Positions 33,685 to 55,247 of a DNA stretch of 55,265 bases are shown piece after piece. Below the pieces are notes generated by a model, which worked only from the letters and a program-made list of their open reading frames with translations, made no database searches and had not been told where the DNA came from. Location of the stretch: the NCBI GenBank assembly GCA_025463165.1, contig JAOBAU010000027.1, positions 1 to 55,265 on the forward strand, given 5' to 3'. A program made the position numbers and the translations under genes. This DNA is from Acidobacteriota bacterium. Its GTDB lineage: Bacteria; Acidobacteriota; Thermoanaerobaculia; Gp7-AA8. Positions within the stretch are counted from its first letter, which is position 1; every line of letters starts with the position of its first letter.

Positions 33685-33691
33685 TTCGTCG

Positions 33692-33994
33692 TTAGTCGGT
33701 CGCGAACGGAATCAGCGCCGCGGTACGCGCGCGCTTGATGGCGTTCTGGAGTTTGCGCTGGTGCAGTGCGCAGGTACCCGAAATACGGCGCGGAAGAATC
33801 TTCCCGCGCTCCGGGATGAACTGCTGCAGCATCTTCACGTCTTTGTAGTCGATGTACTCGAGCTTCTCGACGCAGAACTTGCAAACGCGCTTCCGGCGGT
33901 AGAAGAACTTCTTCTTTCCGCCCTGCGGGCCACCCTGCCCGCCGCCCGGGCCACCGCCCGGAGAGCTTCTTCTCGGTCCACCCATCGTTGCCAT
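33692..33994 (-). CDS. rpsR: 30S ribosomal protein S18
   Basis: Start at 33994 preceded by AGGAAGGAG. ...[45 protein letters not shown]... Confidence 0.95.
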
Positions 33995-34010
33995 GTTCGA
34001 TCTCCTTCCT

Positions 34011-35815: not shown

Positions 35816-36688
35816 ATGCCTCGTCCACGAGTGGTTTTCCCTGGCGCCGGCGGTCCGTTCTCGTGCCTCGTGCTCGAGCGCCTGACCGGTGTTGCAGACG
35901 TCGTGGCTGTGGTTGTACCGCGAGGCCGCGGCCGTGGACTACGGCAAGTTGTCGCGACGCTGCGACAGCGATACGCGACGCGAGCATTGCACCGGATCGC
36001 TGCTCGCCATCGCATTCCCGTTGTGGTGTTTGGAACTGACCTGCATCGCTTCAACGCGGATCTCCTCTGCACCGCCTCGTTTCCCCACATCATCCCCGCC
36101 GAGACACGTACTTCGGTCCGAGTCGGCGCGATCAACGTTCACTCGTCGCTGCTGCCGCGACATCGCGGACCTGATCCGATCTTCTGGACGTATTTCGATG
36201 ATGATCGAATCACCGGCGTCACGGTGCACTGGATGACTGATGGCGTCGACGACGGCGACGTGATCGTGCAACGGGAGGTCAATATCCCGCGCGGAATGCC
36301 GGGGCTCGATCTGTACCTTCGCCTCGCGAACGAAGCAGCGGAAGCGATGGCGACGGCAGTCTCGGCGATCGGCAACGGTTCGCCGAGCCGTACGCCGCAA
36401 GGCGACGGCACGCCGGATCCTCATCCGATGCAAATGACCTGGCGCATCGACTATCACTCGTGGCCGGCGGAGCGCCTTTACCACTTCCTCGCCGGGTACT
36501 CGTTTCGAAAAAACGCGCGCCTCGCCGACGCGAACGGCACCATTCACAATATCGGCGAGGTGCTGCGCGTCGAAGAGAGTGCAAATGGAGTGACGCCTGG
36601 CACATTCGAGTTCAGGCGTAATGAGCTGATGATTTACGTGGGCGACGGCGCGGTAGTCGTACGACAACGTCGCTCGTGGCGAACGTGA
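35816..36688 (+). CDS. Formyltransferase family protein (Fmt/ArnA N-domain-like)
   Basis: Motif NVHSSLLPRHRGPDPIFW and GVTVHWMTDGVDDGDV. It has a C-terminal beta-barrel-like extension. Confidence 0.8.
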   Translation: MPRPRVVFPGAGGPFSCLVLERLTGVADVVAVVVPRGRGRGLRQVVATLRQRYATRALHRIAARHRIPVVVFGTDLHRFNADLLCTASFPHIIPAETRTSVRVGAINVHSSLLPRHRGPDPIFWTYFDDDRITGVTVHWMTDGVDDGDVIVQREVNIPRGMPGLDLYLRLANEAAEAMATAVSAIGNGSPSRTPQGDGTPDPHPMQMTWRIDYHSWPAERLYHFLAGYSFRKNARLADANGTIHNIGEVLRVEESANGVTPGTFEFRRNELMIYVGDGAVVVRQRRSWRT

Positions 36689-42154: not shown

Positions 42155-42805
42155 ATGCATCTCGACGCCGACACGCTGGCGATGGTGCGCAATGCCCTGC
42201 AGCTCGTCCGCCTCACCATCGTCGCCGGATTTGTCGTTGCCGGCCTGCGAGTGATGCGCTCGCCGCCCGACGTCCGCAGAAAACGCATCAATCAGTTGCT
42301 TGCATACGTTCTCGCGGTTCACGTGTCGATCGCGATCGCGCAGAACGACGCCTGGCCGTTCACGATGTATCCAATGATGGCAGTCGACTCCACCAATGTT
42401 TCTTCCCTCCACAACGGCCTTTCGTTCCGTGTCGTCGATGACGCCGGAGAAGAATGGCCGGTCGATCCGCTGGCGTGGTCGCCGCTCTATCCACAATCGA
42501 TCATGGGTTGGTTCGAAGTGTCGTATCCGAACGCGACTGTGGCGCAACGCAACGACGTATTGCGTTTCCTCCTCGCGCGCGCCGAGCTCGCTCGGCGGCA
42601 CGGAGTACGTGGCGAACATTTCTACGGCAACGCCGCCCTTCTCGGACCACTCGCGGCACCTGATACGAATCTGTACAACGCGGTGACCGCGTCAGGGCAT
42701 CCGCTGCGCGCGCTGCGCGTGTATCGCGTCTTCTGGATTCCTTCCGAGTTCGCGACGAAGAGGACGCTCCGCGACCGGCGCCTCGTCTGTGAGTACCGCG
42801 AATGA
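42155..42805 (+). CDS. Single-pass membrane protein with WPF..YPM motif (paralog of 50710..51219)
   Basis: An N-terminal TM segment is followed by NDAWPFTMYPMM...FRVVDDAGEEWPVDPL. It has the same architecture as 50710..51219. The stop overlaps the HTTM start. Confidence 0.6.
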   Translation: MHLDADTLAMVRNALQLVRLTIVAGFVVAGLRVMRSPPDVRRKRINQLLAYVLAVHVSIAIAQNDAWPFTMYPMMAVDSTNVSSLHNGLSFRVVDDAGEEWPVDPLAWSPLYPQSIMGWFEVSYPNATVAQRNDVLRFLLARAELARRHGVRGEHFYGNAALLGPLAAPDTNLYNAVTASGHPLRALRVYRVFWIPSEFATKRTLRDRRLVCEYRE

Positions 42806-43710
42806 AGAACGCCTGGGATCGTTTCTGGTTCCGGCCGGGCGGACCGACGAACTTCATCGCGGCGCGAATCATCGTCGCCATCACGTCGCTGTGGCTTGTC
42901 CTCTCCCGACCGAATCTTCCCGGCATCGTTGCGTGGCCGGAAGCGTTCTGGCTGCATCCGAACACCTGGTTGCGCGCCCGCTTTCTCATCCTCGGATTGC
43001 CGTATGCCGCGGAGCTGGCGCTGTATGTCGTGCTGATCGTCGCGCTGCTGCTCACCGCGGCCGGACGTTACACCGCGATGAGCGCATTCGCCGCGGCAGT
43101 TCTGCTGTATCACTTCGCGCCCTTCGAAGACATTTTCACGTCGCTGTCCGGTCCATTCTTTCGCGGGCTCACGGCGTGTGTGAGCTGCCTCTTCATCATC
43201 TCGTTCGCGAAACAGCCGCGGCGCTTGGATCAGCCCTCGCCTGAATATCGTTGGCCGCTGATGCTGATGCGACTCCTGTTCGCGCTGACCTATTTGCTCT
43301 CCGGTATTTCAAAGCTGCGACTCGTCGGACCGCGATGGGCGACCGGACAAAACTTCGAGGGCATCGTCATGGCGATGATGCTGCCTGACGCGACGCCACC
43401 GTGGGCTCACTGGTTCATCGGACATCCGCTGCTCTGCTGGCTCGGCGCGCTCGCGGGCGTGATGATGGATTTCCTCTTCATCTTCACGCTCTTCTCGCCG
43501 CGCGCTGCACGAATCCTCGTGCCGCTGGTCGCCGTCACTCATCTCGTCGTCGTGAAGGTGCTCGGCGTCGTCTTTCCCGCGGCGCCGCTTCTGCTCCTCT
43601 TCGTCAACTGGGAGTGGCTGTTCGATGCGCTGCGAGGACGACGCGACGGATCTGCCAGAGCAGCGGAACGATTCGACGAGCCAGCGTCGGCGCAATCCGG
43701 AATGCAATGA
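42802..43710 (+). CDS. HTTM domain-containing membrane protein (vitamin K-dependent gamma-carboxylase N-domain-like)
   Basis: WDRFWFRPGGPTNFIAARIIVAITSLWLVL...LLYHFAPFE...YRWPLMLMRLLFALTYLLSGISKL. The HTTM assignment rests on my recollection of the family pattern. It is a paralog of 51216..52007. Confidence 0.7.
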   Translation: MKNAWDRFWFRPGGPTNFIAARIIVAITSLWLVLSRPNLPGIVAWPEAFWLHPNTWLRARFLILGLPYAAELALYVVLIVALLLTAAGRYTAMSAFAAAVLLYHFAPFEDIFTSLSGPFFRGLTACVSCLFIISFAKQPRRLDQPSPEYRWPLMLMRLLFALTYLLSGISKLRLVGPRWATGQNFEGIVMAMMLPDATPPWAHWFIGHPLLCWLGALAGVMMDFLFIFTLFSPRAARILVPLVAVTHLVVVKVLGVVFPAAPLLLLFVNWEWLFDALRGRRDGSARAAERFDEPASAQSGMQ

Positions 43711-44062
43711 CGACGAGCTGTCGATTGAACGTCTGCCAGCCGGTTTCCTCATAAGGCGCCGCCGAAAGCGCGCGACCGATCAGCGCATCAGCGCTGACCG
43801 GCAGGTCCGGAATCGGGTTTGCGTCGCCTCGCGCCAGCATCCATGCGCCGCGTCTCGCGATCAGGCGGTGGACGACCACCTGACCGCGGTGCAGAAACAG
43901 AATCACGTCGCCCGGCTTCGCTTCATCACCGCAAACAATCTCGACCGGCGCGCCGGCAGCAATCGTCGGCAGCATGCTGACGCCGCCAAAGCTCGCCGTG
44001 AACGTTCGCCGCTCCCGTTTCCAGAGCGAAGCGATCGCGGCAAGCTCGCCGGCGTCAACCAA
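43604..44062 (-). CDS. S26-type signal-peptidase-like serine peptidase (Ser/His, SipW/Sec11-like)
   Basis: Catalytic Ser box GGVSMLPTI. VVHRLIA sits where bacterial SPase I has K-R-[VL]-I. GDAN box. TTG start at 44062 overlaps the upstream stop by 8 nt. Confidence 0.65.
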   Translation of the reverse strand: MVDAGELAAIASLWKRERRTFTASFGGVSMLPTIAAGAPVEIVCGDEAKPGDVILFLHRGQVVVHRLIARRGAWMLARGDANPIPDLPVSADALIGRALSAAPYEETGWQTFNRQLVVIAFRIAPTLARRIVPLLWQIRRVVLAAHRTATPS

Positions 44063-45143
44063 CGGCGGGCGCCGGTATCGGCATTGCGGCGGACGGCGCC
44101 GGCGTAGCGATGCGATGATCGGGCAGCAACAGATAAGGACCGATCGTCGCGCGTGTGTGCGGATGCTTGAACGCCCAAACGAGTCCGTCGAGGTAGAAGT
44201 GCATCAGCACGACGAGGTTCAACAGCCAGTTGTGCAGCCCCATCGCATTGAAGTGATGGATGAAGCGGTCGACGACACCGGTCACGGCAATGAGTGAGAG
44301 GAGCAGGATGAGAATGCGCGGCACCGATCGACTGATCGACGCCAGCATTCGCTGCTTCATCGAACCGGCGGTATGCGCGTACTTGCGGTAATTGAGCAGC
44401 CACAGCAAACCGAGATACTGGACGTAATGTCCGGCCAGCATCGCCGAGGTTGCGTTGTGGCGATCCTTCATCAGAACGTAGGGAAGGAACAGCAGTGCCG
44501 ACGTGGTGAGAAAAATCGTTTCCGGCGTGACGAAACTCGTAGCGCGGCGGCGCATACGCATGATGAGCATGCCGAGCGCAATCAAACCTGCGCTGAGCAG
44601 CGCCGGTCCGAGATACGGCGTCACGTCCCAGGGCAGCCGGCGAAGGAAAAACATCACGTCCGGCTGATCGTTGATCGTCACGGCGTAGAGACCGAAACCA
44701 ATGCAGACGAGCGCCAGGTTTGCCGGGACTTTTTCGGAACGGTTGTCGCCGGCGTTCAGATGGCGATAGACAGAGAGAATGCCGCTGCTTTGCCGCGACA
44801 CGTGAAAGACGTTCCAGACGTCGACGATCAGCGCGACCAGCATGTACAACTTCAGGAGGATCGCGCCGGTGAGCGCGAAGACGAGCAGCACCGGCCCTGC
44901 ATAGAACGCGATCGCACGCTTTCTCGCGTACGCGGCATTCTGATCATCGAAGTAGTACGAGTACGTCGACAGGTAATGCGGCATCCCGAGCACGAAGAGC
45001 GAGAAACCGCTGACGAGCGCCGCATCGAGAGACCACGCGAACGAACAGATCGCGATTCCGAAAAGCGGCGGCAGTGCGAGCAGCCAGAGGTCGTACTTTG
45101 GCGACTCGATCCATCCCGCGTTCGTTGTCGCGGCCGCGGCCAT
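44055..45143 (-). CDS. Polytopic membrane protein with conserved-looking His residues, unknown function
   Basis: Start MAAAATTNAGW at 45143, 1 nt after the upstream stop. About 9 hydrophobic segments. His-containing segments are MPHYLSTYSYYF, FHVSRQSSG, GHYVQYLG and MHFYLDGLVWAF. Confidence 0.65.
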   Translation of the reverse strand: MAAAATTNAGWIESPKYDLWLLALPPLFGIAICSFAWSLDAALVSGFSLFVLGMPHYLSTYSYYFDDQNAAYARKRAIAFYAGPVLLVFALTGAILLKLYMLVALIVDVWNVFHVSRQSSGILSVYRHLNAGDNRSEKVPANLALVCIGFGLYAVTINDQPDVMFFLRRLPWDVTPYLGPALLSAGLIALGMLIMRMRRRATSFVTPETIFLTTSALLFLPYVLMKDRHNATSAMLAGHYVQYLGLLWLLNYRKYAHTAGSMKQRMLASISRSVPRILILLLSLIAVTGVVDRFIHHFNAMGLHNWLLNLVVLMHFYLDGLVWAFKHPHTRATIGPYLLLPDHRIATPAPSAAMPIPAPAVG

Positions 45144-45144
45144 C

Positions 45145-45879
45145 TCAGCCAGTCCCCTGCGCGACGAGACGCTTTGCAACATCGATCTCGTCCTCAGTGA
45201 ATCCTGCCTCACGCCGCACATCCTCAGCGACCGGATACATCGTGGCAGCATCGCCGGCGATGATTTTGAGCGCCTCGTTTGCGAGCGAAACAGCTTTCGT
45301 CATCTGAAATACGGCTGCCGCACCACCGAGCTCCATCAGCTTCTTTACCCAGACATTCGCATAGCGGACGTGCTGGACTTCATCGGCGAGCTGCCCATCG
45401 AAAAGCTCATCCAGATCGGTTCGTCCTTCGCGGCGTGCGGCTTCGCTCACCTCGTTCTGGATTGCGTCGATTCCGGCTGCTTCGAAGCTGCGATTCTGAA
45501 CGGCAAGACGACCGATGAGCGACGGGATATTCGTAATTACGCGGTACTGAAAATTCATCACGGGGTACTCGCCGACCTCGACACCGCGACGTTCGAAGCA
45601 GCCGCGAAACGCTTCGATGTGCCGCGACTCGTCCCAGCACTGCCGTGCCATCGACATGCGCAGCTCCCACGGTGCATCGGGAAAATCGGCGAGGTTGCGC
45701 GCCGAGATTTCCATCCCGTTGATCTCTTCGTTCATCTGCCGGTGCAGGAACTCGTTGATCAGCCGCGGATCGGAGGCATCGAAGTTCTGCATCTCCGCCC
45801 ATAGATCGCGCACGTCGAATCGCGAATCGCGCTTCGGACCTTCAGCGAAGAGCTTCGGATCGAGCTGCGGGGTGGTCAT
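45145..45879 (-). CDS. DUF455 / ferritin-like di-iron carboxylate protein (paralog B)
   Basis: NEEINGME...CWDESRHIEAF...FEAAG...LADEVQHVRYAN gives an E...ExxH...E...ExxH pattern. The ATG overlaps the paralog A stop (ATGA). Confidence 0.8.
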   Translation of the reverse strand: MTTPQLDPKLFAEGPKRDSRFDVRDLWAEMQNFDASDPRLINEFLHRQMNEEINGMEISARNLADFPDAPWELRMSMARQCWDESRHIEAFRGCFERRGVEVGEYPVMNFQYRVITNIPSLIGRLAVQNRSFEAAGIDAIQNEVSEAARREGRTDLDELFDGQLADEVQHVRYANVWVKKLMELGGAAAVFQMTKAVSLANEALKIIAGDAATMYPVAEDVRREAGFTEDEIDVAKRLVAQGTG

Positions 45880-46676
45880 GCGTGTACCTGTTCCGGCACC
45901 AGTGAACGGAACCCGGCCTGGCGAAGGATCTCGTTGATCTCTTCGTCGTTGAACTCCGCCAGCTTCCGGTCCTCGACATTCACAATCGGGATACGCGAAT
46001 GCGGATCTTCGAAGACCTTCCCGTTCACCGTCGTCTCGCCGGCATCCGCCTGCAGCGTCTGATTCGCATGACTCACGAATCGAACTGCCATTGCGACCTT
46101 CATGAGCACGCGCGGATTTTCCGCGGCAAGCTGTTTGATCCAGCGATTCGCAAAACGGACGTGATGAATTTCATCGGCGAGAATCGCGTCGAGCACCGCC
46201 GCCGTTGCGTCATCACCGATCGCCCGCCACTCGCGGATGTTGCCGCCGACGACGTCCATCGCACCAGCCTCGAATGTGCGGTTCTGCGACGCCAGACGAC
46301 CGGCGAGATCGTCGAGCGCGCAGGTCACCTGCCATTCGAACGCAGAGATCGGGACCTCTCCTTTGTAACCGCCCATCTCTTCAAGACGGCGATGAAGCGC
46401 CGCAATGTGACGCGATTCATCCCAGCATTGCCGCGCCAGTTCCATGCGCAAGCCCCACGGCGCATCCGGAAACTCGATGAGGCACTGTGCCGCGATGTCG
46501 AGACTGGTGATCTCGTTCGTCATGTGACGATGCACGGATTCGCGCTGCGCTTCCGGACCGGAGCCGTCGTATTCGGCCATTTCCTTGTCGCGTCGAACGA
46601 CTTTGAAGGCTTCGTCGCGCGCCGGCTCGGCACGCAGTCGAAGACCTGCTTCCTCGACGAATCCGATCTCTTTCAT
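45876..46676 (-). CDS. DUF455 / ferritin-like di-iron carboxylate protein (paralog A)
   Basis: TNEITSLD...CWDESRHIAAL...FEAGA...LADEIHHVRFAN. It is collinear with 45145..45879. Confidence 0.8.
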   Translation of the reverse strand: MKEIGFVEEAGLRLRAEPARDEAFKVVRRDKEMAEYDGSGPEAQRESVHRHMTNEITSLDIAAQCLIEFPDAPWGLRMELARQCWDESRHIAALHRRLEEMGGYKGEVPISAFEWQVTCALDDLAGRLASQNRTFEAGAMDVVGGNIREWRAIGDDATAAVLDAILADEIHHVRFANRWIKQLAAENPRVLMKVAMAVRFVSHANQTLQADAGETTVNGKVFEDPHSRIPIVNVEDRKLAEFNDEEINEILRQAGFRSLVPEQVHA

Positions 46677-46685
46677 CTGCGACTC

Positions 46686-47210
46686 CTAACCCTGTGGAGC
46701 GACGATCGCGGAATGTGCACTCTCGCGGCGCGCGAGCTCGGGCAATGGAACGGCGACGACCGCGATTCGTTCGCGCAGCCGCTGCGCATCACGCTTCATG
46801 CGTTCGAGATCGATGAGAATGCGCTCGACGATCACCACTGACGGCTCGTCGAGCAAACGATCCGTAGCGTCAACGTACGCGCGATAACGGCTTTCGAGCG
46901 CCGGGATGAACACGTCGTAAAGAGCGGAAAGGCGTTTCCCCGTCTCTTCTTCCGCCGCCAGAGCTTCAATGACGTCGACGTAGGACTCGGCCGGTTTGAG
47001 TGAGTACTGCTCCGGCTTGCGTAGCTCGAACGTCCGTTTGCCGAGCCAGTCGGCGTGTTGCGCGAAATCGAAAATATGGCGGCCGAACAGCACCTTCACT
47101 TCCATCTCGGCGGTCGTCGGAGTCCACGCGGCGGTGATCTCCATCAGGCGAACTTCGATGAACCGAAACGTCGCGATGGCGCGAACGCGGTCGTTCACTG
47201 TAAGGCTCAT
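46686..47210 (-). CDS. Helical hypothetical protein (174 aa)
   Basis: The ATG overlaps the stop of the kinase-like gene (ATGA at 47207-47210). I recognise no family. It could be a degenerate four-helix-bundle partner of the DUF455 pair. Confidence 0.6.
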   Translation of the reverse strand: MSLTVNDRVRAIATFRFIEVRLMEITAAWTPTTAEMEVKVLFGRHIFDFAQHADWLGKRTFELRKPEQYSLKPAESYVDVIEALAAEEETGKRLSALYDVFIPALESRYRAYVDATDRLLDEPSVVIVERILIDLERMKRDAQRLRERIAVVAVPLPELARRESAHSAIVAPQG

Positions 47211-48241
47211 GGGTTGAATTCCCCTTCGAGAATTGACACCGTTTTATCGGGATTGGCGGACGTCATTCTATAGCAGCGGACAGAACCCAGAAGCCGGATC
47301 ATCTCGAAGACGCGCATGGCCGGCGGAGCGCCGGACAGCGTCGTCGCCATCGGCTGCATCATCGCCAGTTCCTCGCGTCCCGCCTGAATGCGTTCGAGTC
47401 GCGCTTCGTCTGCGAATCCTTCCAGGAAAATGACCGACTCGAGTGGCAGTGGACGTGCGGGAACGAGATCGAAGAGCGCGTCGGCGTCAACACGCAGCAG
47501 CCCGTCTTCATCACCCCGCGGCTGTACGCGAGCGAGCGACCGCGTCACGGCTTCCACACGCGGGCCGGGCTTGATGCCGGCGGGACGCCGGAACGGCAGC
47601 AGCTGACGCGAAGCGGGAACGTAGACCGCGGTCTCATCGCCGAGGAACTGATGTCCGCGTGACGCAAGGCCAAGTGAAAGCGTCGACTTGCCGGAGCCTT
47701 TCGGACCGATGAGCAGCACTCCCCTGCCGTCGATACCGACGGACGCGGCGTGAAAGAAAAGCGCTTCCTGCCTCAGCGCCAGCATGCGCAGGAAGAGATA
47801 GTGCGCGAGGATGCGGCGCCAGCGCGAAACGTCGCGGAAGCGGCAGACATCGCCGCGAAATGAGAAGAGCGCTTCCGAATCGTCGCCGATGGCGAGCGAT
47901 TTCCAACCGGCTTCAATCGGCTCGCATGCACGGAGTGGAATGGTCGGAGAAGAAAAGCCGAGCAGGAATGCCGCGGCATCGAGCGTGGCGCCGGAATCGA
48001 TCGTCAGCTCGCCCAATTCGCCATTCGCGGGAGCGTGCAGCGTCGCCGCGAAACCGGCCGGCGCGAGATCGCCGAAGTTCTCCGCACGGCGGCCTCCGAA
48101 GACTGAAGCGAATTCCTCCGCGAACGCGGGATCGTCGGTTGTCAGATCGAGCGACACCGCGAGAAGGGAGAATCGCTCGGATGACAACGCCGCACCAGCG
48201 GACACAGGGATCACCTCGGGGAAGGTTTGACTACATACCAA
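47207..48241 (-). CDS. HPr kinase-like (HprK-related) P-loop protein; start uncertain
   Basis: C-terminal half: LFFHAASVGIDGRGVLLIGPKGSGKSTLSLGLASRGHQFLGDE. This is the HprK C-domain signature seen in peptide-modification clusters. The start may be TTG at 48241 or GTG at 48214. Confidence 0.7.
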   Translation of the reverse strand: MVCSQTFPEVIPVSAGAALSSERFSLLAVSLDLTTDDPAFAEEFASVFGGRRAENFGDLAPAGFAATLHAPANGELGELTIDSGATLDAAAFLLGFSSPTIPLRACEPIEAGWKSLAIGDDSEALFSFRGDVCRFRDVSRWRRILAHYLFLRMLALRQEALFFHAASVGIDGRGVLLIGPKGSGKSTLSLGLASRGHQFLGDETAVYVPASRQLLPFRRPAGIKPGPRVEAVTRSLARVQPRGDEDGLLRVDADALFDLVPARPLPLESVIFLEGFADEARLERIQAGREELAMMQPMATTLSGAPPAMRVFEMIRLLGSVRCYRMTSANPDKTVSILEGEFNP

Positions 48242-48266
48242 ACCGCCGCCAGTTTATGGCGGCGGT
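48242..48266 (-). terminator. GC hairpin between the precursor ORF and the kinase-like gene (possible attenuator)
   Basis: ACCGCCGCC-N7-GGCGGCGGT (9-bp perfect stem) begins 27 nt after the precursor stop. It abuts the TTG at 48241. There is no long U-tract. Confidence 0.4.
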
Positions 48267-48292
48267 GAAGAAGACGATGGAAGGGGACTGCC

Positions 48293-48448
48293 TCAGCAGC
48301 CGGCCATCCACCACGTCTGCATTGCCTGCGTGATCTGGAAGGTATTGAGAATGTCCTTCTCGCTCATCACCTGCACGCGCGGCGTGACATACGCCGGACG
48401 ATCGTTTTTGCTCTTCTCCGGGGAGGTCGTGACCTGGGTCTCGTTCAT
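48293..48448 (-). CDS. 51-aa candidate RiPP precursor peptide (not in the ORF track)
   Basis: My own translation is MNETQVTTSPEKSKNDRPAYVTPRVQVMSEKDILNTFQITQAMQTWWMAGC*. GGAGGA lies 7 nt upstream of the ATG. It sits directly downstream of the PqqD-like gene, and its C-terminal Cys matches the HFCD enzyme in the operon. Confidence 0.6.
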   Translation of the reverse strand: MNETQVTTSPEKSKNDRPAYVTPRVQVMSEKDILNTFQITQAMQTWWMAGC

Positions 48449-48455
48449 TGAAATG

Positions 48456-48461
48456 TCCTCC
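48456..48461 (-). promoter_or_regulatory. Shine-Dalgarno (GGAGGA) of the precursor ORF
   Basis: Forward-strand TCCTCC at 48456-48461, with a 7-nt spacer to the ATG at 48448. Confidence 0.55.
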
Positions 48462-48526
48462 GTTGAGTGTCGTTACGGCTCAACCTGTTTATGCGTTTGG
48501 CGACATCATAAGGATGTCGATCGGTT

Positions 48527-48793
48527 TCAGTCAACGAGTAATCCCAGGGAAGCGAGCTCAGAGGCGGCGCTCTCGACGTCCCGCGCCGCCGTTTCCGGTT
48601 CCACGCCGCTGTACTCCTCGGCGAGCCGGCCGGCGATCTCCTGCAATGTGATGTTGCCGTCGCAGGCACGCCAGACGAACGACATCGTCTCGTTGAGAAC
48701 GAAAAACTTCGCGTTCGCCGGGTCGAAGAGCATCAGCTCACCCTGGAGCGGAGCCTCCTCAATGCCGGGATTGCGGCGGAGTGACGCGGTCAT
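48527..48793 (-). CDS. PqqD family protein (RiPP recognition element-like)
   Basis: Start MTASLRRNPGIEEAPLQGELMLFDPANAKFFVLNETMSFVWRACDGNITLQEIAGRLAEEY..., 88 aa. This is the classic PqqD pattern. The upstream 93 codons of the listed ORF are Arg-rich non-coding read-through. Confidence 0.8.
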   Translation of the reverse strand: MTASLRRNPGIEEAPLQGELMLFDPANAKFFVLNETMSFVWRACDGNITLQEIAGRLAEEYSGVEPETAARDVESAASELASLGLLVD

Positions 48794-48851
48794 GGCAGAA
48801 CCATCCTGATGTCCGGAACGCGCAGAGAGTAGCGGCGAATCGCTGAAAGCG

Positions 48852-50117
48852 TCAAGGCAGCGACGGCTCGTCGGTCGTGTACGTGAATTCCGTGAAGCAC
48901 ATCTCGTCTTTCGTCGTCTGTCCGAAATGAACGTCCACCGGCGGATTGCTCGGGTTGCGAGAGTTCGCAGCCGTATTGTCGAACGACGCGGCCAGATCGA
49001 TGACCGTCCCCGCCGGCAACGCCAGCGGCGCGGCCAGCTGATACATCCCTCCCCACGCCGGATCCCAGTCATCGATTTTCAGCAGGCACTCGCGAACGCC
49101 ACCAGGCCGCGTTGCATTCACTTCGATGCGATGCCCGAGGTAATGCATGTGGCCACCGAGCGCATACATGTGGATCGGTTTCGGGATCGTGTACGACGCG
49201 GTGACACGCACATCCGAGTTACCCGCCGGGATCTCCAGTGCCCCGAGAGCAACCGCGCGATACTCGAGCAGCCGGCGCGGACGCTTCTTCGCAAAATAGA
49301 ATGCGACCTTCGCCTGCTCGGGCGGTGGCGTCGCGGTTCGCGGATGAAAGTGAAAATAGAGGACGAGGTCCGAGTGCGGAGGAATCGGAATGCCGACGCC
49401 ATCCGGCACCGAGAATGGCTGCGCATTCGAGAACCAGTTCCCGAAGTACGACGTCGGGATGAACTGCACGTCGAGCTGGCCGTCGTAGCCCGGCTTCGGG
49501 TCGGCGGCGTCGAGCTTCCGCGCCTTGCCACTCGAGTCGATCATCGCCGTCACGTGATGCACGGTTCGCGGCGACGACGGACGAACGTCGACGGATGTGA
49601 CGTAACGCGTCTCGGAAAAATCGAGCGGAATCACGATGCTGCGGAACGTCTCATGGTCGCCCGGCGGAGAGTAGGGCTCCGGCATCTCCACGACGAGATC
49701 GGGACGGCCGAGCTTCCAGCCGGCGTCGAACTTCCGGCGCGGCGGCAGTTGCACGCGATCGCCTTCGGGCGCTCCTGCCGCCGCCCACGCTCCGATCGCG
49801 TCGATCTCGGACTGCGTCAGCCGCCTCTCACCTGCGAAGGAGCCGCAGCCAGGCACCGGTTTCCACGGCGGCATCTGTCGCTTGCGCGTGAGTTGCGCGA
49901 TCTCCGACGCGAGAGCTTTGGCCGGCTCGTACGTTTCCAATGACAGATGCGACGGACCACCGGCGTGATGGCATTGCTGACAACGCGCGGCGAAGATGCG
50001 GACGATCTCGCGGCTGAACGTCGGCGACGGAGGCGTGCGGTCAGCCGGCGCGGCGTTGATGAGCACGAAGAACGCCGCGGCCGCGACCGCCGAGACCGCA
50101 ACGTTCCGGACGTTCAT
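48852..50117 (-). CDS. Copper type II ascorbate-dependent monooxygenase-like protein (PHM/DBH fold) with N-terminal CxxCH segment, secreted
   Basis: Start MNVRNVAVSAVAAAAFFVLINA at 50117 (ATGA overlap with the HFCD stop). Motifs: CQQCHH; VHHVTAM (HH); HFHFH; GGHMHYLGH (HxH); DEMC (Met ligand candidate). Confidence 0.7.
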   Translation of the reverse strand: MNVRNVAVSAVAAAAFFVLINAAPADRTPPSPTFSREIVRIFAARCQQCHHAGGPSHLSLETYEPAKALASEIAQLTRKRQMPPWKPVPGCGSFAGERRLTQSEIDAIGAWAAAGAPEGDRVQLPPRRKFDAGWKLGRPDLVVEMPEPYSPPGDHETFRSIVIPLDFSETRYVTSVDVRPSSPRTVHHVTAMIDSSGKARKLDAADPKPGYDGQLDVQFIPTSYFGNWFSNAQPFSVPDGVGIPIPPHSDLVLYFHFHPRTATPPPEQAKVAFYFAKKRPRRLLEYRAVALGALEIPAGNSDVRVTASYTIPKPIHMYALGGHMHYLGHRIEVNATRPGGVRECLLKIDDWDPAWGGMYQLAAPLALPAGTVIDLAASFDNTAANSRNPSNPPVDVHFGQTTKDEMCFTEFTYTTDEPSLP

Positions 50118-50689
50118 CTGAGCTTCGCGCGCAGTTGGACGAGCAGCGTCGGCAACGGAAACGGCTCGCTCACTTCGTCGAGCCCTTCGCGCGTTGCGAT
50201 CTCGACATTCGGCAGCGGCGGCAGCACGACGTAGCCATCGCGCTTCAGCGTTTCGATGTTGCGCTGCACCGCCGCGTGCTGCCACATCACTTCATTCGTC
50301 ACCGGCACGAAGAAGACCGGCTTTCGCGTGGCGATGATCAGCGCGGCGATCAGCTCATCGGCGATGCCCTGCGCGACTTTCGACAAGATGTTGACCGTTG
50401 CGGGATAGACGATGATGAGATCGGCATCGCGCGCCAGCTCGATGTGGGGAACGTACACGCCGCCGGCGATGTCGTCCATCTCCGTAAAGACCGGATGTCT
50501 GCTCGCCACTTCGAGCGCATACGACGACACCATCTTTGACGCCGCGCGCGAGACGACGACCTGCACGTCATCGGCAACGTGACGCAACAGTGCGAGCACG
50601 AAGCCGGGCAACGCATACGCCTGAAATCCGCCCGCTGCGCACAGGAGCACCTTGCGCGCGCGTCCGTTCTGTTCGGTCATTTCGTGCAT
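50114..50689 (-). CDS. HFCD family flavoprotein (EpiD/CoaC-like cysteine decarboxylase), stand-alone
   Basis: VLLCAAGGFQAYALPGFV...VVVSRAA...VPHIELARDADLIIVYPATVNILSKVAQGIADEL. It has the conserved active-site His and the PAT.N motif. At 191 aa it has no CoaB domain. Confidence 0.85.
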   Translation of the reverse strand: MHEMTEQNGRARKVLLCAAGGFQAYALPGFVLALLRHVADDVQVVVSRAASKMVSSYALEVASRHPVFTEMDDIAGGVYVPHIELARDADLIIVYPATVNILSKVAQGIADELIAALIIATRKPVFFVPVTNEVMWQHAAVQRNIETLKRDGYVVLPPLPNVEIATREGLDEVSEPFPLPTLLVQLRAKLR

Positions 50690-50709: not shown

Positions 50710-51219
50710 ATGCTGACGCTGCTTCGCGTCGCCCCTTTCGCGCTGCTTCTCCTCCTCGGCGCCATCGTGGTGGCGACGAAATGGCGTCGCAGCGCGACCA
50801 TCACCTTCATCGCGTTCTTCCTGATTGCATCGTGCGTCGCCGGCTTCGCGAAACGCGATCTCTGGCCGTTCTCGCCATACCCGGTGATCGCAGAGTCGGC
50901 CGAGCGCTGGCGCGAATCGATCTGGTACGAAGTACGCGCCGTCGATGGGCACGGCGTCGAGCATCCGCTCGACGTCTCGCCGTTCACCCGCTCCTCGTAC
51001 GAGAAATCGCTCACACGCGCATGGCCGAAGGTGCAGTGGTGCGCGCGCCTCGTTCGCGGAGGCGCCCCGATTCGGAACGACTATCTGCTCGGCGCGTTCG
51101 CGGCGCCCGACTGGCTGCTGGAGCGCGGCGGCCGCACCACGGCCGGCGAACAAACGATCCGTATTTACCGCCACGACGTTCGCGGCACATCACTCGTTCG
51201 CGAAATCCCGAGCCAATGA
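50710..51219 (+). CDS. Single-pass membrane protein with WPF..YP motif (paralog of 42155..42805)
   Basis: N-terminal TM segments are followed by KRDLWPFSPYPVI...YEVRAVDGHGVEHPLD. The stop overlaps the HTTM-2 start (ATGA). Confidence 0.6.
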   Translation: MLTLLRVAPFALLLLLGAIVVATKWRRSATITFIAFFLIASCVAGFAKRDLWPFSPYPVIAESAERWRESIWYEVRAVDGHGVEHPLDVSPFTRSSYEKSLTRAWPKVQWCARLVRGGAPIRNDYLLGAFAAPDWLLERGGRTTAGEQTIRIYRHDVRGTSLVREIPSQ

Positions 51220-52007
51220 GCGCGCTGGAACGGCTGTTCTTCTCACCACCGAGCGCTCGCGGAATCGTCGCCGCGCGAATCATCGTCGTCGCGCACGCGC
51301 TCTGGATCGTGTTGTCACGGCCCTCGCTTTGGTCGGTGAATCCGCCTCGCGACCTGGCGCTCCGTTTCGGCTGGCTGTTTGACGTCGCAACCGAACGCGT
51401 TCTCTTCATCGTGCTCGTCGTCGCCATCGCGCTGGCGCTCTTCAGCCGCGTCGCGTCACTTGCGGCGGCGGTGCTGCTGTATCACTTCGCGCCGCTGGAA
51501 GAAGCGCTCGCCCATTCGGGCGATCCATTCATGTACGGACTCACTGCCGACGTGCTCGCGCTGGCAGTCCTCGCATTCGTTCCTCGCGTGCGAAACGCGG
51601 AGCCGAGCGGCGATTTCCGCTGGCCGATCGTCCTGATCCGTTTCGCGGTCGCGGCGCCGTATCTCTTCTCGCTCGTCGCGAAGGGAATCGGCTGGTTCAC
51701 CGGATCGAACATTGCGAACGTTGCGCGCACCTTCGATTTGATTGGCGTCGCGCCCGCCGCGAATCTCGTGATCGATCACCCGGTGTTAGCCTGGCTGATT
51801 GCGATCGGCTGGCTGCTGGTCTCGATCGGGATGCCGATCGCGGTCGTGTCACGTCGCGTCGCGCGCTTCGTCGTACCGATTGCCGCGCTTGCGCATCTCG
51901 CGGCGATTCCGCTGTTCGGCGTGATCTGGCTCGCCACGCCGCTGCTGTTGCTGTTCGTCGATTACAGCGCGACCCCGAACTCCTCCGCCCATCGCGCCAG
52001 CGCGTAG
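51216..52007 (+). CDS. HTTM-like membrane protein (paralog of 42802..43710)
   Basis: LERLFFSPPSARGIVAARIIVVAHALWIVLSRP...LLYHFAPLE...FRWPIVLIRFAVAAPYLFSLVAKG is collinear with HTTM-1. Confidence 0.7.
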   Translation: MSALERLFFSPPSARGIVAARIIVVAHALWIVLSRPSLWSVNPPRDLALRFGWLFDVATERVLFIVLVVAIALALFSRVASLAAAVLLYHFAPLEEALAHSGDPFMYGLTADVLALAVLAFVPRVRNAEPSGDFRWPIVLIRFAVAAPYLFSLVAKGIGWFTGSNIANVARTFDLIGVAPAANLVIDHPVLAWLIAIGWLLVSIGMPIAVVSRRVARFVVPIAALAHLAAIPLFGVIWLATPLLLLFVDYSATPNSSAHRASA

Positions 52008-53881
52008 ATGCGCCAGATGGCGCGGACGTCGTTGTGCTTTCGCGCGGCGAAGTCGTCGACGAATCGTGCGACCGCGCCGCGCGCGAACATCGGCGCGCCC
52101 GCGACGGCGAGAATGCGCGCTTCGACATCCGGCCACATCGCGCCGCGGATGAACTGCTCGTCGGGCGTGCCGAAACCCATCCGGTCTTTGCGTTCGGTCA
52201 CGTCCGTCGGCAGGTAGCGGCGGGCGACGTCGCGGAGGACGCGTTTGCGCTGGCCGCCGCCGGCTTTGAAGTGATCGGGCAAGGAGAACGCGAGCTCGAC
52301 GAGCGCGCGATCGAGGAACGGGACGCGCGCTTCGATGGAGCTGGCCATCGAGACGCGATCGGTGTAGCCGAGGATGATTTTTACGTTGCCCCATTTCACG
52401 TCGCGGAAGAGGAGCCGTGCTACGCGCGAGGAGCGTCGGCCGCGATCGGCGAGCGCGTTGCGCGCGGCCTCGATGCGTGCGGCGTCGCGGCCGTACGACG
52501 GCTCGAGCCACGATTGCGCCGGCCGCTTTTGCGCGAGACGTCGCGCGAGTAGGTCACGGATGATCGCGAAGGATGAGCGTTCTTCGTATCGCGCCATTGC
52601 GCGGAGCTCGCGCGCGAATGAGAAGACATCGCGGCGATCGAGGTGATCGCGCAGGAGATTGACCTGATAGCTCGGGTAGCCGGCGAACACTTCATCTGAT
52701 GCTTCGCCATCGATCACGACGGTCATGCCGTGCTCGCGACAAAGCTCGAAGACGCGGAACTGGGCGAGCGCGGCGATGCCGAGGACCGGTTCGTCCATCG
52801 CGCGCATCACGCGGCCGGCGTTGGCGACGACCCACGATTCGTCGAACGTCGTTTCGTGCAGCGTCAGTCCGTATTTGCGCGCCACCGACTCCGCGTACGG
52901 CAGCTCGCTGAAGCGCGCGAACCGTGGATCGCGGAAGCCGAATGAGAACGCGGGCGGCGGCGCGACGTCTTTCGCCGCGATCGCGGCGAGCAGCGATGAA
53001 TCGAGTCCGCCCGAGACGAGATAGCCGACGTTGACGTCGGCGACGTTGTGCGTCGCGACCGCGTGGCGCAAGCGTGATTCGACTTCATCCACGCATTGCG
53101 CGTATTCGCGATCGCTCGATTCGCGCGGCTCGATGGCGCTGAAGTTCCAGTAGGTTTGCGGCGACGGCATCGCGCCGTGCGCATCGAACGAAATCTCGAC
53201 GAAGCTCGCGGCCGGCAGCGGTGTGATTCCTTCGAAGAACGTTTCATCGAGCACCGGCACGCGATTGCCGCGCAGGAACGCGGCGACGATCGGCGCGTGC
53301 GCGCGCGGACGCTCATCACGCGCGGCGACGAGCTGCTTCACTTCCGACGCGATCAGAATCCGCTCGCCGTCGAGCGACCAGTAGAGCGGTTTGATCCCGA
53401 AGCGATCGCGCGACGCGACGACGACGCGCCGCTGCAGATCGACGATGACGATTCCCCACATCCCGTCGAGCTCTTCGAAGCAGCGCGTTCCCCACGCTTC
53501 GTACGCCGCCAGCGCGACTTCCGTGTCGCCGTGTGTCGCGAACGCGCGTCCGTTCGCGGCCAGTCGCATGCGCAGTTCGCGGAAGTTGTAAATCTCGCCG
53601 TTGAAGGCGATCCAGACCCTGCCATCCGGTGATGACATCGGCTGCGATGCCGCTTCGCTCAGATCGATGACGTTCAGCCGGCGAAACGCCATCGCGGCGA
53701 GCACCGGCGTCGACGGCACTGCTGCCGGATCGCGCACGAGTAGCGCGTCACCGCGCTGATCGATGAAGACGAATCGCTCGCCGTCGGGACCGCGATGGCG
53801 AATCTGCGCGTGCATCCGCATCAGCCGCGCCACCGCGTCGGGCGACGCGGTGCGATCGATGACCGCGCTAATCCCGCACAT
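51962..53881 (-). CDS. Asparagine synthase (glutamine-hydrolysing) family protein
   Basis: Ntn Cys2 (MCGISAV), RGPDG, and the PP-loop SGGLDSS. 639 aa. The 3' end overlaps HTTM-2 convergently by 46 nt. Confidence 0.9.
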   Translation of the reverse strand: MCGISAVIDRTASPDAVARLMRMHAQIRHRGPDGERFVFIDQRGDALLVRDPAAVPSTPVLAAMAFRRLNVIDLSEAASQPMSSPDGRVWIAFNGEIYNFRELRMRLAANGRAFATHGDTEVALAAYEAWGTRCFEELDGMWGIVIVDLQRRVVVASRDRFGIKPLYWSLDGERILIASEVKQLVAARDERPRAHAPIVAAFLRGNRVPVLDETFFEGITPLPAASFVEISFDAHGAMPSPQTYWNFSAIEPRESSDREYAQCVDEVESRLRHAVATHNVADVNVGYLVSGGLDSSLLAAIAAKDVAPPPAFSFGFRDPRFARFSELPYAESVARKYGLTLHETTFDESWVVANAGRVMRAMDEPVLGIAALAQFRVFELCREHGMTVVIDGEASDEVFAGYPSYQVNLLRDHLDRRDVFSFARELRAMARYEERSSFAIIRDLLARRLAQKRPAQSWLEPSYGRDAARIEAARNALADRGRRSSRVARLLFRDVKWGNVKIILGYTDRVSMASSIEARVPFLDRALVELAFSLPDHFKAGGGQRKRVLRDVARRYLPTDVTERKDRMGFGTPDEQFIRGAMWPDVEARILAVAGAPMFARGAVARFVDDFAARKHNDVRAIWRIYALARWAEEFGVAL

Positions 53882-55247
53882 CGTGAAGAGCGGCGGCCGG
53901 CGTCATCGCCAGCGCCAGAAACGTCCAGAGAAATGCGTCGATCTGCTGGCGGTAAACCGCCCCCTCGCTCTTCTCGAGAAAGGCGCTGACGGCGAGCACG
54001 TAGATGGCGACGAAGAGCATGTAGACGAGCAGCCACTTCGCGGCGCCGTTCCACGCGCGCGCGCGGCGCACGCCGCTGACGAGCGCGAAGACGATCAGCG
54101 GAAAACCGATCAGCGGCGCGGCGACGTCCATCCACGACCAGCGCGCGAAGAATTTTCGCGGATGATCGAAGTAGACGCCGAGCTGGTAGCCGGAAAGGAT
54201 GTAGGTCGAGTTCGCAACGTTGCCGAGGTATTTCAGCGGATGGTGCGCGATCAGCCAGAGCGTGTCGCGCAGGTACTGGCGGCCGACCGGAATGTAAATC
54301 GCGTGATGAAAATTCGGCTCGCCGGTCGATTTGCGCGTCCGGTCGAGCAGCGGCACGCCGGTCGGCGCGACGTCGACGTACGGCATGTACGTTTCGGGCG
54401 GTTCGTTGCGATAGACCAGGACGAGCGGCGACACGCGATGTTCGGCCAGTGCCTGCGCTTTGTCGGCGGTCATGCCGGCCGTCATTGCGGCGAGGTTGCA
54501 GCCGAACCAGCTGCTGCCGAGCGTCTGTTTGAACACGACGTACTGTTTGATTTGAAATGCGACCACGAGCGCGAACGGGAGCGCCGCGGCGGCGATCGCT
54601 TTGCGTCTCTTTGCCGGATGCAGTTTCGCGAATCCGTAGCCGATGAGCACGAGCGCCAGCGCGCACCAGATGCTCGTGAAGAAGGCGCGCGTGAGCGGCA
54701 GGATCACGAGCAGCATCGCGGTCGCGGCGAGCCACGCGATCGAGCCGCGCTGTAATGCGTTCGCCAGCGCGAGCGCCGACGCCGCGATGAGCAGCGCCAG
54801 CGGCACGCCGTAATAGACAGCGTTCTCGCACCACATCGCATTCGGATTGAGCATCAGCAGAATCGTCGCGAGCGTTGCGATTTCGGATCGCACTCCGAAG
54901 CGGCGCATCAGCGCGAATGCGATCAGATACAGCGCGAGCGCCATCAGCCAGTTCGCGTATTGATAATTGCGCGCGAAATTGCCCGGCACCCGGAGCATGC
55001 CGGCGACGAAGAGATTGAAGAGCGGCGGCTGCGCGTGGAGATACCAGAGACTGCGCCCGAGGTCGTTGAGAAGCAGCTCGCGATCGATGATCGGCATACA
55101 GCTGCCGAGCGTCGACACATCGAACGTCTCCCCGCGCAGCGTCGCCGCCGCGCGCTGCACGACATTTCCGCGGACGCTGATCGTGCCGACGCCGGTCGAA
55201 ACCGTTTGATAGAGCAGACGCGTGACGATGAACGTCGCGACGATCAC
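53868..55247 (-). CDS. Large polytopic membrane protein (possibly GT-C/PMT-like glycosyltransferase); may extend beyond the window
   Basis: 12 or more hydrophobic segments. GTG at 55247, but the frame stays open to 55265, so the true start may lie outside the window. The stop overlaps the asnB-like start by 14 nt. Confidence 0.55.
   Translation of the reverse strand: MIVATFIVTRLLYQTVSTGVGTISVRGNVVQRAAATLRGETFDVSTLGSCMPIIDRELLLNDLGRSLWYLHAQPPLFNLFVAGMLRVPGNFARNYQYANWLMALALYLIAFALMRRFGVRSEIATLATILLMLNPNAMWCENAVYYGVPLALLIAASALALANALQRGSIAWLAATAMLLVILPLTRAFFTSIWCALALVLIGYGFAKLHPAKRRKAIAAAALPFALVVAFQIKQYVVFKQTLGSSWFGCNLAAMTAGMTADKAQALAEHRVSPLVLVYRNEPPETYMPYVDVAPTGVPLLDRTRKSTGEPNFHHAIYIPVGRQYLRDTLWLIAHHPLKYLGNVANSTYILSGYQLGVYFDHPRKFFARWSWMDVAAPLIGFPLIVFALVSGVRRARAWNGAAKWLLVYMLFVAIYVLAVSAFLEKSEGAVYRQQIDAFLWTFLALAMTPAAALHDVRD

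Follow-up and report, generated by a model that had tools for sequence, protein, structure and literature searches.

Contig JAOBAU010000027.1 of an Acidobacteriota bacterium (GenBank assembly GCA_025463165.1), analyzed here over its whole length of 55,265 nucleotides (the window), carries ten minus-strand genes between positions 50689 and 43604, one of which encodes a peptide of 51 amino acids (aa). We conclude, with a probability of about 0.7, that this locus is the biosynthetic cluster of a previously undescribed class of RiPPs, peptides that the ribosome makes and that are modified after translation; that the system carries out RiPP-type peptide maturation, whatever its class, is somewhat more probable still. 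The class is probably defined by an ATP- and O2-dependent modification near an invariant Trp-Trp pair, guided by a RiPP recognition element (RRE). The general features of such systems are present, namely a conserved and translated-looking precursor gene, a PqqD-like RRE, and a precursor combining a conserved leader with a variable core.

An initial annotation, made without database searches, had described the ten open reading frames (ORFs), all of which were recovered at the same coordinates, and had read them as a RiPP pathway or as a pathway to a peptide-derived cofactor in the style of pyrroloquinoline quinone (PQQ) or mycofactocin. The RiPP interpretation is supported: the conservation of the small ORF, the synteny of the gene set, the nature of the PqqD domain, and the distinction of the flavoprotein from CoaC could each have told against it, and all fell in its favor. 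The cofactor alternative is disfavored by the hypervariable tail of the peptide, which favors a natural-product RiPP over a fixed cofactor. A survey of in-frame starts verified four start/stop overlaps (50114-50117, 47207-47210, 45876-45879, and 44055-44062) and showed the remaining intergenic gaps to be short. The domain calls also stand, by Pfam and NCBIfam for the HFCD flavoprotein, the PqqD protein, the DUF455 pair, and the S24/S26-type peptidase, and by the P-loop stretch only for the HprK-like protein. The genes and one RNA element are as follows:

50114..50689, minus strand: HFCD flavoprotein, LanD-like (PF02441, 83 bits)
48852..50117, minus strand: PHM/DBH-like copper monooxygenase with an N-terminal signal or anchor and a CxxCH cytochrome-c-like module (PHM profile match)
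48527..48793, minus strand: stand-alone PqqD-family RRE, 88 aa (PF05402, 61.7 bits, model positions 1-67 of 67)
48293..48448, minus strand: precursor peptide, 51 aa, MNETQVTTSPEKSKNDRPAYVTPRVQVMSEKDILNTFQITQAMQTWWMAGC (23 homologs, alignment, coding signature, Shine-Dalgarno-like site)
48242..48266, minus strand: GC-rich hairpin with a 10-bp stem, then TTTGG, directly 3' of the peptide stop codon
47207..48205, minus strand: HprK/PEPCK-fold P-loop protein (Pfam ScmC family PF27840), 332 aa (fold model, motifs)
46686..47210, minus strand: p174, ferritin-fold four-helix bundle, 174 aa (AlphaFold2 model and Foldseek)
45876..46676, minus strand: DUF455a, ferritin-like di-iron protein with full E/ExxH/E/ExxH ligand set (PF04305, 95.9 bits)
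45145..45879, minus strand: DUF455b, paralogous di-iron protein with full ligand set (PF04305, 67.7 bits)
44055..45143, minus strand: mem362, polytopic membrane protein with about six transmembrane segments (motifs PHYxST, WNxxHxxRQxxGIL, HxxQYL, HFYxDGxxWxF)
43604..44062, minus strand: S24/S26-clan peptidase, 152 aa (Peptidase_S24, 26.2 against a cutoff of 23.3)

A conserved precursor peptide gene

The 51-aa ORF matches no family in Pfam or NCBIfam, and its 23 database homologs (59-100% identity), when aligned, vary at the N-terminus, are nearly invariant between Arg17 and Trp47, and keep the terminal Cys. Among 55 distinct DNA versions of the 28 conserved codons, 9301, 6517, and 18402 differences fell at positions 1, 2, and 3 of the codon, and synonymous and nonsynonymous changes stood at 9838:12611 in frame versus 1912:23038 and 1110:23802 in the other two frames. 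Because homologs exist and third-codon-position changes dominate, we regard the ORF as a genuine coding gene, and a spurious small ORF is ruled out by the codon-position analysis. A Shine-Dalgarno-like motif precedes 44 of 61 peptide starts; in the window it is GGAGG, 8 nt upstream of the ATG. In every locus covering the position the small gene lies between the PqqD gene and the kinase-like gene, which bears out the initial pairing of a conserved small ORF with a PqqD gene.

Across loci the peptides measure 47-56 aa, and the 50 distinct ones share Y-x-x-P-x-[IV]-x-x-[MV]-x-E-x-[ED]-[IVM]-L-x-x-F-Q-[IVL]-T-[QS]-[AS]-x-x-x-W-W, in which Trp-Trp, Thr40, Phe37, and Gln38 are invariant. The window peptide accordingly divides into a variable N-terminus, a Y20-x-x-P23-x-V motif, a conserved block up to W46-W47, and the variable tail MAGC. 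In lasso and PQQ precursors, PqqD-type RREs bind a strand similar to this aromatic-x-x-Pro-x-aliphatic element. Beyond Trp-Trp follows a hypervariable tail that differs in both length (1-14 residues) and sequence: MAGC, TAGC, AC, TVSC, TTSCC, TIPTC, NPTCC, TTGMC, NNLGSPFCPPGC, MGTACPCT, AACP, and VTASMR were all seen, and Gemmatimonadota peptides end in only A, G, or GM. A conserved block with a variable tail behind it is the way in which RiPP precursors divide into leader and core.

The hairpin that follows the peptide gene in the window has counterparts elsewhere, with 23 of 55 distinct peptide-to-kinase spacers folding at z <= -2. The stems differ in sequence from locus to locus and T-runs come after many of them, which suggests an attenuator that raises the level of precursor mRNA; the hairpin at 48242-48266 is thus probably an attenuator or partial terminator. 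A promoter and terminator scan over 43-52 kb gave matches not above shuffled expectation. Its sole sigma-70-like match (48505-48534, minus strand; TTGACT, 18-nt spacer, TATGAT, 10/12) shares bases with the 3' end of PqqD (stop 48527) and sits 57 nt upstream of where the peptide gene starts; with a count no higher than in shuffled sequence, it hints at most at a promoter of the precursor's own.

A gene set shared between two phyla

Neighborhoods were compared under uniform annotation around kinase-like homologs at 39-72% identity, in a scan of species-representative genomes, and in a metagenome scan seeded on p174. The genome-representative scan, which used the kinase alignment, gave at least 7 true loci (Thermoanaerobaculia and six Gemmatimonadota metagenome-assembled genomes), its matches being swelled by the generic P-loop pattern; the metagenome scan gave 241 confirmed relatives, 80 of which were kept. 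In all 81 dereplicated loci, from Acidobacteriota and Gemmatimonadota, the genes for PqqD, peptide, HprK-like protein, p174, DUF455a, and DUF455b are colinear, and synteny of the set thus extends over both phyla. Together with the homologs and coding signature of the small ORF, this goes far beyond what chance would give. Occurrence was counted in 12 long loci, defined by at least 6 kb on each side:

S26-like peptidase: 12 of 12
PqqD gene: 12 of 12
Asparagine-synthase-family gene (AsnB): 11 of 12
mem362: 11 of 12
NTP_transf_5: 10 of 12
HTTM-like membrane genes: 9 of 12
Formyl_trans_N: 8 of 12
HFCD: 7 of 12
PHM-like gene: 2 of 12

The class-defining set consists of PqqD, the HprK-like protein, p174, the DUF455 pair, and the S26-like peptidase. 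The HFCD protein and the copper monooxygenase, which the initial annotation had taken as hallmarks, are instead dispensable accessories.

Between the phyla the identity of the enzymes drops to 31-50%, and about 30 peptide residues, including Trp-Trp, stay conserved. This conservation bears on the main rival of a RiPP natural product, namely a peptide-derived redox cofactor or metallophore of the style of PQQ, mycofactocin, cysteine tryptophylquinone (CTQ), or tryptophan tryptophylquinone (TTQ), in which Trp-Trp would be oxidized or cross-linked, excised, and used by the cell. Such a system would likewise combine a small peptide, a PqqD-family chaperone, and conserved residues to be modified near the peptide C-terminus. 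Two di-iron enzymes that activate O2 are encoded, the window ORFs scanned included no exporter or immunity gene, and the chromosomal setting beside ribosomal-protein genes (in the window and in the related locus L004) is a housekeeping one. Cofactor precursors end close to the modified residues, and the Gemmatimonadota peptides stop 1-2 residues after Trp-Trp. However, a tail that is hypervariable and tracked by accessory enzymes is typical of diversifying natural products, and the neighborhood holds no conserved candidate for a cofactor-dependent dehydrogenase. There is also no radical-SAM/SPASM partner like PqqE or MftC: no Radical_SAM domain was found in the cluster, in the window or in related loci, the radical-SAM genes of locus L003 belonging to an adjacent HxsD gene set, and oxidation here would presumably be O2- and di-iron-dependent. 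With the PqqD protein also scoring 24.3 against a cutoff of 46 on the PQQ PqqD equivalog model TIGR03859, membership in the PQQ/mycofactocin systems fails, and we consider a Trp-derived cofactor or metallophore unlikely.

Recognition protein and kinase-like protein

The PqqD protein matches PF05402 over the full model length and well above the cutoff of 23.4, which confirms the ORF as an RRE-type domain. Its best NCBIfam matches, all below cutoff, are the lasso PqqD, ScmD, and HPr-rel-A PqqD models.

The presence of a kinase-like gene ending at 47207 was correctly predicted, and its start needs revision: the database call is a 332-aa protein from GTG at 48205 rather than from TTG at 48241. Since the hairpin abuts that TTG and the database call agrees with the later start, the gap between peptide and kinase genes is probably 87 nt and not 51. 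The longer ORF (47207-48241) matches HprK models in Pfam and NCBIfam only around the P-loop. The AlphaFold2 model (predicted local distance difference test score, pLDDT, 94) finds PEPCK and HprK/P as best Foldseek matches, at superfamily level only, and an alignment of the protein with HprK/P covers the His, Walker A, and DD segment. The alignment of its relatives contains 24 invariant columns, including GxKGxGK and GDE. We consider it a putative ATP-dependent peptide phosphotransferase.

An HprK-related P-loop protein encoded with a PqqD-family chaperone is also found in the HPr-rel-A (TIGR04352/TIGR04353) and SynChlorMet (ScmC/ScmD) systems, and the precomputed Pfam annotation assigns the kinase-like protein itself to PF27840. 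Nevertheless, the scores on TIGR04352, TIGR04353, TIGR04249, and TIGR04248 (53.8, 26.2, 20.2, and 31.8) are all far under the respective cutoffs (200, 35, 125, and 100), and membership in these systems was rejected. The SynChlorMet cassette has radical-SAM enzymes; such enzymes are absent from this cluster.

Three ferritin-fold proteins

Both DUF455 proteins pass the PF04305 gathering cutoff of 34.3, and their E/ExxH/E/ExxH ligands are invariant in 12 orthologs of DUF455a from two phyla and in 13 orthologs of DUF455b. When DUF455a was searched against PDB sequences, only weak bacterioferritin matches were returned, and neither that search nor the searchable literature yielded a solved structure or an assigned reaction for the DUF455 family. 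The 174-aa product, initially described as a helical protein, is indeed helical and can now be amended to a third ferritin-fold subunit. It has a faint rubrerythrin match in Pfam/NCBIfam and lacks the canonical six di-iron ligands; its AlphaFold2 model, built with database homologs, has a pLDDT of 92 and gives Foldseek matches to toluene-4-monooxygenase chain B, PaaAC/PaaABC complexes, YciF, and Dps-like proteins (template-modeling scores 0.6-0.7, weak E-values), a resemblance to noncatalytic subunits of multicomponent monooxygenases.

The p174 family comprises 617 clusters at 90% identity, every one annotated as hypothetical, and a profile search retrieved 976 clusters (50% identity level) with E <= 1e-3. 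Nine of ten sampled long matches were fusions with DUF455:

p174-like/DUF455 single-chain fusions, about 410-550 aa: L111 8001-9332; P0300, P0304, P0311, P0317, P0322, P0326, P0343, P0356

These fusions support a physical partnership of p174 and DUF455, and p174 is probably, as far as the model indicates, a structural or partner subunit of DUF455 oxygenases. The one fusion gene whose context was examined, in L111, sits among genes for a PfkB kinase, a DeoC aldolase, and a tRNA synthetase, with no peptide, PqqD, or kinase gene there. Such housekeeping surroundings gave no functional clue, and they suggest that the DUF455 module is older than the peptide system.

Multicomponent di-iron oxygenases such as toluene-4-monooxygenase and PaaAC likewise pair catalytic four-helix-bundle subunits with a ligand-poor ferritin-fold partner. 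In contrast to these, the present locus has two catalytic paralogs instead of one and encodes no reductase, ferredoxin, or effector. Tailoring of RiPPs that depends on iron and O2 is an established theme, and the iron-dependent RiPP oxidases of the MNIO/DUF692 type have a fold unrelated to DUF455. There is a slim chance that the DUF455 pair and p174 would turn Trp-Trp into a hydroxylated, quinone-type, or cross-linked chromophore that serves soil Acidobacteriota and Gemmatimonadota as a new redox cofactor, metallophore, or signal; in Cys-containing variants this Trp-derived chromophore may be linked to Cys, by analogy with TTQ, CTQ, or tryptathionine. Were such a chromophore formed, it would be the first reaction assigned to the widespread DUF455 family.

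Flavoprotein and copper monooxygenase as accessories

The HFCD protein scores below the cutoffs of the CoaBC (140 versus 220), CoaC (95 versus 261), and CypD (36.5 versus 215) models. It keeps the catalytic His and the motifs PATxN and PVTNxxMW, and its clamp region, which we take to be where CoaC carries its reductive Cys, is free of Cys. Among 38 dereplicated peptides with the upstream region covered, HFCD is encoded near 19 of the 29 with a terminal Cys and near none of the other 9 (Fisher p = 0.001, uncorrected for phylogeny). The low CoaC scores, Cys-free clamp, patchy occurrence, and covariation with the terminal Cys rule out a housekeeping CoaC, an identity that the initial annotation had left open, and point to an accessory tailoring enzyme for Cys-ending peptides.

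In these respects the locus resembles RiPP systems that form aminovinyl-cysteine (AviCys) by means of EpiD, CypD, TvaF, or MicD: the HFCD protein stands alone, has the catalytic His and the Cys-free clamp, and occurs with Cys-ending precursors in 19 of 19 loci. All 19 HFCD-linked peptides have a Ser/Thr within 8 residues of the terminal Cys, which is compatible with AviCys formation and does not prove it. In contrast to those systems, HFCD is optional here, and LanB, LanM, LanKC, LanL, CypH/L, YcaO, and TfuA are missing. No Ser/Thr dehydratase (LanB/M/KC/L, CypH/L, TvaCD) was detected by Pfam/NCBIfam in the window or in related loci, and lanthipeptide/AviCys membership fails on this missing dehydratase. 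Phosphorylation could come from the HprK-like enzyme, but a matching lyase was not identified there.

The call of a PHM-like copper monooxygenase also stands, even though its single Pfam match, to the C-terminal domain, is borderline and sub-threshold (22.2 versus a cutoff of 23). The single sequence found no match in the PDB, and a two-sequence profile was needed, which matched the PHM catalytic core throughout its length (E 4e-8, query residues 138-419) and DBH (5e-4). Its VHHV, QIHY, HMHYLG, and DEMC motifs align with PHM; we presume that these hold PHM's six copper ligands (CuH His, His, His; CuM His, His, Met). A hydrophobic segment spans residues 6-24. With occurrence in only three loci (the window, L031, and L006, the last at 47% identity and in another position), the enzyme is a rare accessory.

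Extent of the cluster

The operon limits first drawn, 43604-50689, are too narrow. The functional unit is larger and includes AsnB (51962-53881), mem459 (53868-55247), and two flanking pairs of membrane-protein genes (42155-43710 and 50710-52007); the formyltransferase gene at 35816-36688 is probably also part of it. The genes added beyond the initial annotation are thus AsnB, NTP_transf_5 (off the contig), the formyltransferase, and the HTTM-like membrane pairs:

51962..53881, minus strand: AsnB, glutamine-hydrolyzing asparagine-synthase family (AS-like), 639 aa, Cys2 intact (TIGR01536, 413.8 against a cutoff of 267.1)
53868..55247, minus strand: mem459, polytopic membrane protein of no family (orthologs 92-96% identical in L001 and L003)
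50710..52007, plus strand: upstream pair, a 169-aa membrane protein (50710-51219) and an HTTM-like protein (51216-52007), with a start/stop overlap at 51216-51219
42155..43710, plus strand: downstream pair, a 216-aa protein (42155-42805) and an HTTM-like membrane protein (42802-43710), convergent with the operon
35816..36688, plus strand: Formyl_trans_N protein (PF00551, 87.7 bits; the ortholog adjoins the operon in most distant loci)

The contig ends 18 nt past mem459. In the closest relatives mem459 sits between AsnB and the NTP_transf_5 gene, so that the latter would be expected just beyond the contig end. The two flanking pairs, each translationally coupled, are paralogous (37% and 28% identity), and the L007 ortholog of the upstream HTTM-like protein passes the Pfam HTTM model (38.2 versus 27.7). 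One to three such small-membrane/HTTM-like pairs recur in 9 of the 12 long loci, sometimes within the cluster (L007).

Within the operon, mem362, whose listed motifs are conserved and His-rich, has no Pfam/NCBIfam family above noise, and FA_hydroxylase genes replace it in most Gemmatimonadota loci. The S26-type peptidase scores 42.4 on sigpep_I_arch, under the cutoff of 51.85; its G-x-S-M, H-R, and G-D-x5-D motifs are invariant in 12 orthologs, and no transmembrane segment or membrane anchor is predicted. It is read as a soluble Ser/His/Asp enzyme and is a putative leader peptidase.

The full-length AsnB orthologs all begin with MCG and thus keep Cys2. Asparagine-synthase-like (AS-like) enzymes amidate or nitrilate the C-termini of RiPPs, and about 300 RiPP-associated ones are uncharacterized (PMC13060819). 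As with TsrC, ScdTA, and PesC, a glutamine- and ATP-dependent AS-family enzyme is encoded here beside a RiPP precursor (PMC13060819), yet the present HFCD loci would lose the C-terminal carboxylate and still retain AsnB.

An AS-family gene in this position also raises the possibility of a divergent lasso cluster, in which the AS homolog would be the macrolactam cyclase, PqqD the B1 protein, and the kinase and nucleotidyltransferase tailoring enzymes. In Firmicutes lasso clusters such as those of paeninodin and pseudomycoidin, a stand-alone PqqD-type RRE, an HPr-kinase homolog, an AS-family enzyme, and a nucleotidyltransferase do co-occur; there, the C-terminal Ser of the precursor is phosphorylated by the kinase, and glycosylation has been linked to the nucleotidyltransferase PsmN (PMC7533575). 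The lasso PqqD model is moreover the best NCBIfam match of the PqqD protein, and Thr40 could be position -2 of a lasso-like leader. The initial statement that lasso B and C proteins are absent therefore needs qualifying, as an AS-family gene lies just upstream and a nucleotidyltransferase gene occurs in relatives; its substance holds in that the AS-like enzyme is not a lasso cyclase. AsnB passes the asparagine synthase cutoff, scores 190.1 against 525 on the lasso cyclase model NF033535, keeps the glutaminase Cys2, and is not encoded within 10 kb in L008. No B2 transglutaminase-like leader protease was found among the window ORFs scanned or the Pfam-annotated genes of L001, L003, L004, L006, L007, and L008, and Asp or Glu, which a lasso core carries at position 7-9 as the isopeptide ring acceptor, occurs in only 1 of 50 distinct tails. 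Furthermore, the invariant core of this system is a triple ferritin-fold oxygenase with an S26 peptidase, which are not characteristic of lasso clusters. The lack of a B2 protease among these genes, the scoring of the AS-like enzyme as a true asparagine synthase, and tails without acidic acceptor lead us to reject a lasso peptide, and even a divergent one is very improbable.

The enlarged gene set also bears on a third alternative, that the enzymes act on a non-peptide substrate (membrane lipid or cell envelope), the small protein being a subunit with a regulatory or structural role. FA_hydroxylase-family enzymes, a formyltransferase, AsnB, a nucleotidyltransferase, and large polytopic membrane proteins are among the neighbors, and gene types of these kinds also occur in lipid or polysaccharide modification loci; a fused p174-DUF455 enzyme occurs without a peptide gene. 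However, a PqqD-family domain right before a small conserved ORF is a signature of peptide recognition, a structural subunit would not explain the hypervariable C-terminal tail, the restriction of HFCD to peptides with a C-terminal Cys would be left unexplained, and the soluble core enzymes do not suggest lipid substrates. We therefore regard a non-peptide substrate as improbable.

Proposed pathway for a RiPP product

For a RiPP product, the following order of events can be proposed, in which all chemistry is inferred and any single chemical step is no better than tentative. (i) The PqqD protein would bind the Y-x-x-P-x-[IV] strand and present the peptide to the enzymes. (ii) The P-loop enzyme would phosphorylate a hydroxyl residue, candidates being Thr40, which is invariant, and a Ser/Thr that often precedes Trp-Trp, and NTP_transf_5 may then decorate the phosphate, as has been reported of some lasso peptides. 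(iii) p174, DUF455a, and DUF455b would form a multi-subunit, O2-activating di-iron oxygenase that performs the class-defining oxidation, likeliest on the two invariant Trp. (iv) Lineage-specific enzymes would modify the tail: in the window, HFCD would turn the C-terminal Cys into an enethiol by oxidative decarboxylation, from which an AviCys-type ring could form onto a dehydrated Ser/Thr, and the secreted PHM-like copper enzyme would then act outside the cytoplasm. (v) The AS-like enzyme would amidate a carboxylate. (vi) The S26-like peptidase would cut off the leader, plausibly after [IV]-T-[QS]-[AS].

Several points weigh against this reading. The mechanism was inferred throughout, and modification of the peptide is itself a prediction. 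None of the known class-defining RiPP enzymes, and no dedicated exporter or immunity gene, was present among the window genes scanned, and no lyase for phospho-Ser/Thr elimination was identified by Pfam/NCBIfam in the window or related loci. With 1-2 residues after Trp-Trp in Gemmatimonadota, the tail cannot be the product there. The Foldseek E-values of p174 are weak (6e-3 or worse), and the fused p174-DUF455 in a housekeeping context means that the DUF455 module is not intrinsically peptide-directed. AsnB, the formyltransferase, the NTP transferase, and the membrane proteins are also reminiscent of genes for modifying the cell envelope. As for the link between HFCD and terminal Cys, the Fisher test ignores phylogenetic non-independence, and 10 of the 29 Cys-ending peptides have no nearby HFCD. 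Cys-ending peptides without HFCD nearby include the TTSCC and SPFCPxGC classes, L008, and L046; no replacement Cys-modifying enzyme was found, the upstream ORFs of HFCD-less TTSCC loci being Pfam-blank or encoding an unrelated helicase, MBL-fold protein, or RNase H.

If the RiPP reading is true, the locus represents a new class whose members number in the hundreds, in two soil phyla that are poorly represented in culture, and would offer the first biochemical context for DUF455, p174, and ScmC-type HprK-like proteins. The searchable literature, which does not cover subscription journals, yielded no description of the gene set and no link of DUF455 to peptide natural products. The invariant Trp-Trp, the hypervariable and often Cys-rich tail, and the modular accessories (HFCD, PHM-like enzyme, FA-hydroxylases, methyltransferase) would together amount to a natural combinatorial library, for which the association of HFCD with a terminal Cys is already a testable rule. 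The PqqD/HPr-kinase/AS-like/nucleotidyltransferase module of lasso clusters would thereby have been reused outside lasso biosynthesis.

Genomic surroundings

In 4 of the 12 long loci, of different lineages, a large Ser/Thr protein kinase gene (665-704 aa where complete) adjoins the cluster, and its product may be a regulator:

L006 15342-17339: Ser/Thr protein kinase
L007 18303-20381: Ser/Thr protein kinase
L008 5625-7739: Ser/Thr protein kinase
L010 18344-20962: Ser/Thr protein kinase

A DUF1800/DUF1501 gene pair (38800-41420, plus strand) and a gene for a 238-aa membrane protein (41432-42148) adjoin the cluster in the window; the pair and a membrane gene of this type also do so in L001 and L003, and in L007 DUF1800/DUF1501 lie on the opposite side of the cluster. 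The ORF at 37637-38737 (plus strand) has only a carbamoyltransferase C-terminal domain. In the equivalent place L003 has a full Carbam_trans_N/C gene and an SxtJ-like gene, and the window ORF may be frameshifted, mis-started, or a further tailoring gene. L003 also carries, at 52-3070, an HxsD-family gene and two radical-SAM genes directly beside the NTP_transf_5 gene. This looks like a second, separate peptide-modification system, which we take to be of the His-Xaa-Ser type.

The rest of the window is ordinary chromosomal context. Genes for ribosomal protein S18 and DUF2232 lie near the cluster (32650-34234), L004 carries a fuller S6/S18/DUF2232/L9 set near its own cluster (17427-19832), and a class-I methyltransferase gene follows beyond the ribosomal-protein genes in both. 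The shared ribosomal-protein neighbors suggest that the cluster keeps its place in the chromosome across distant Acidobacteriota and is not a mobile island. A tyrosine recombinase gene (12969-14063, minus strand; Phage_integrase with a SAM-like N-terminal domain) between M28 peptidase and lytic transglycosylase genes is probably XerC/D-like housekeeping, 30 kb from the cluster.

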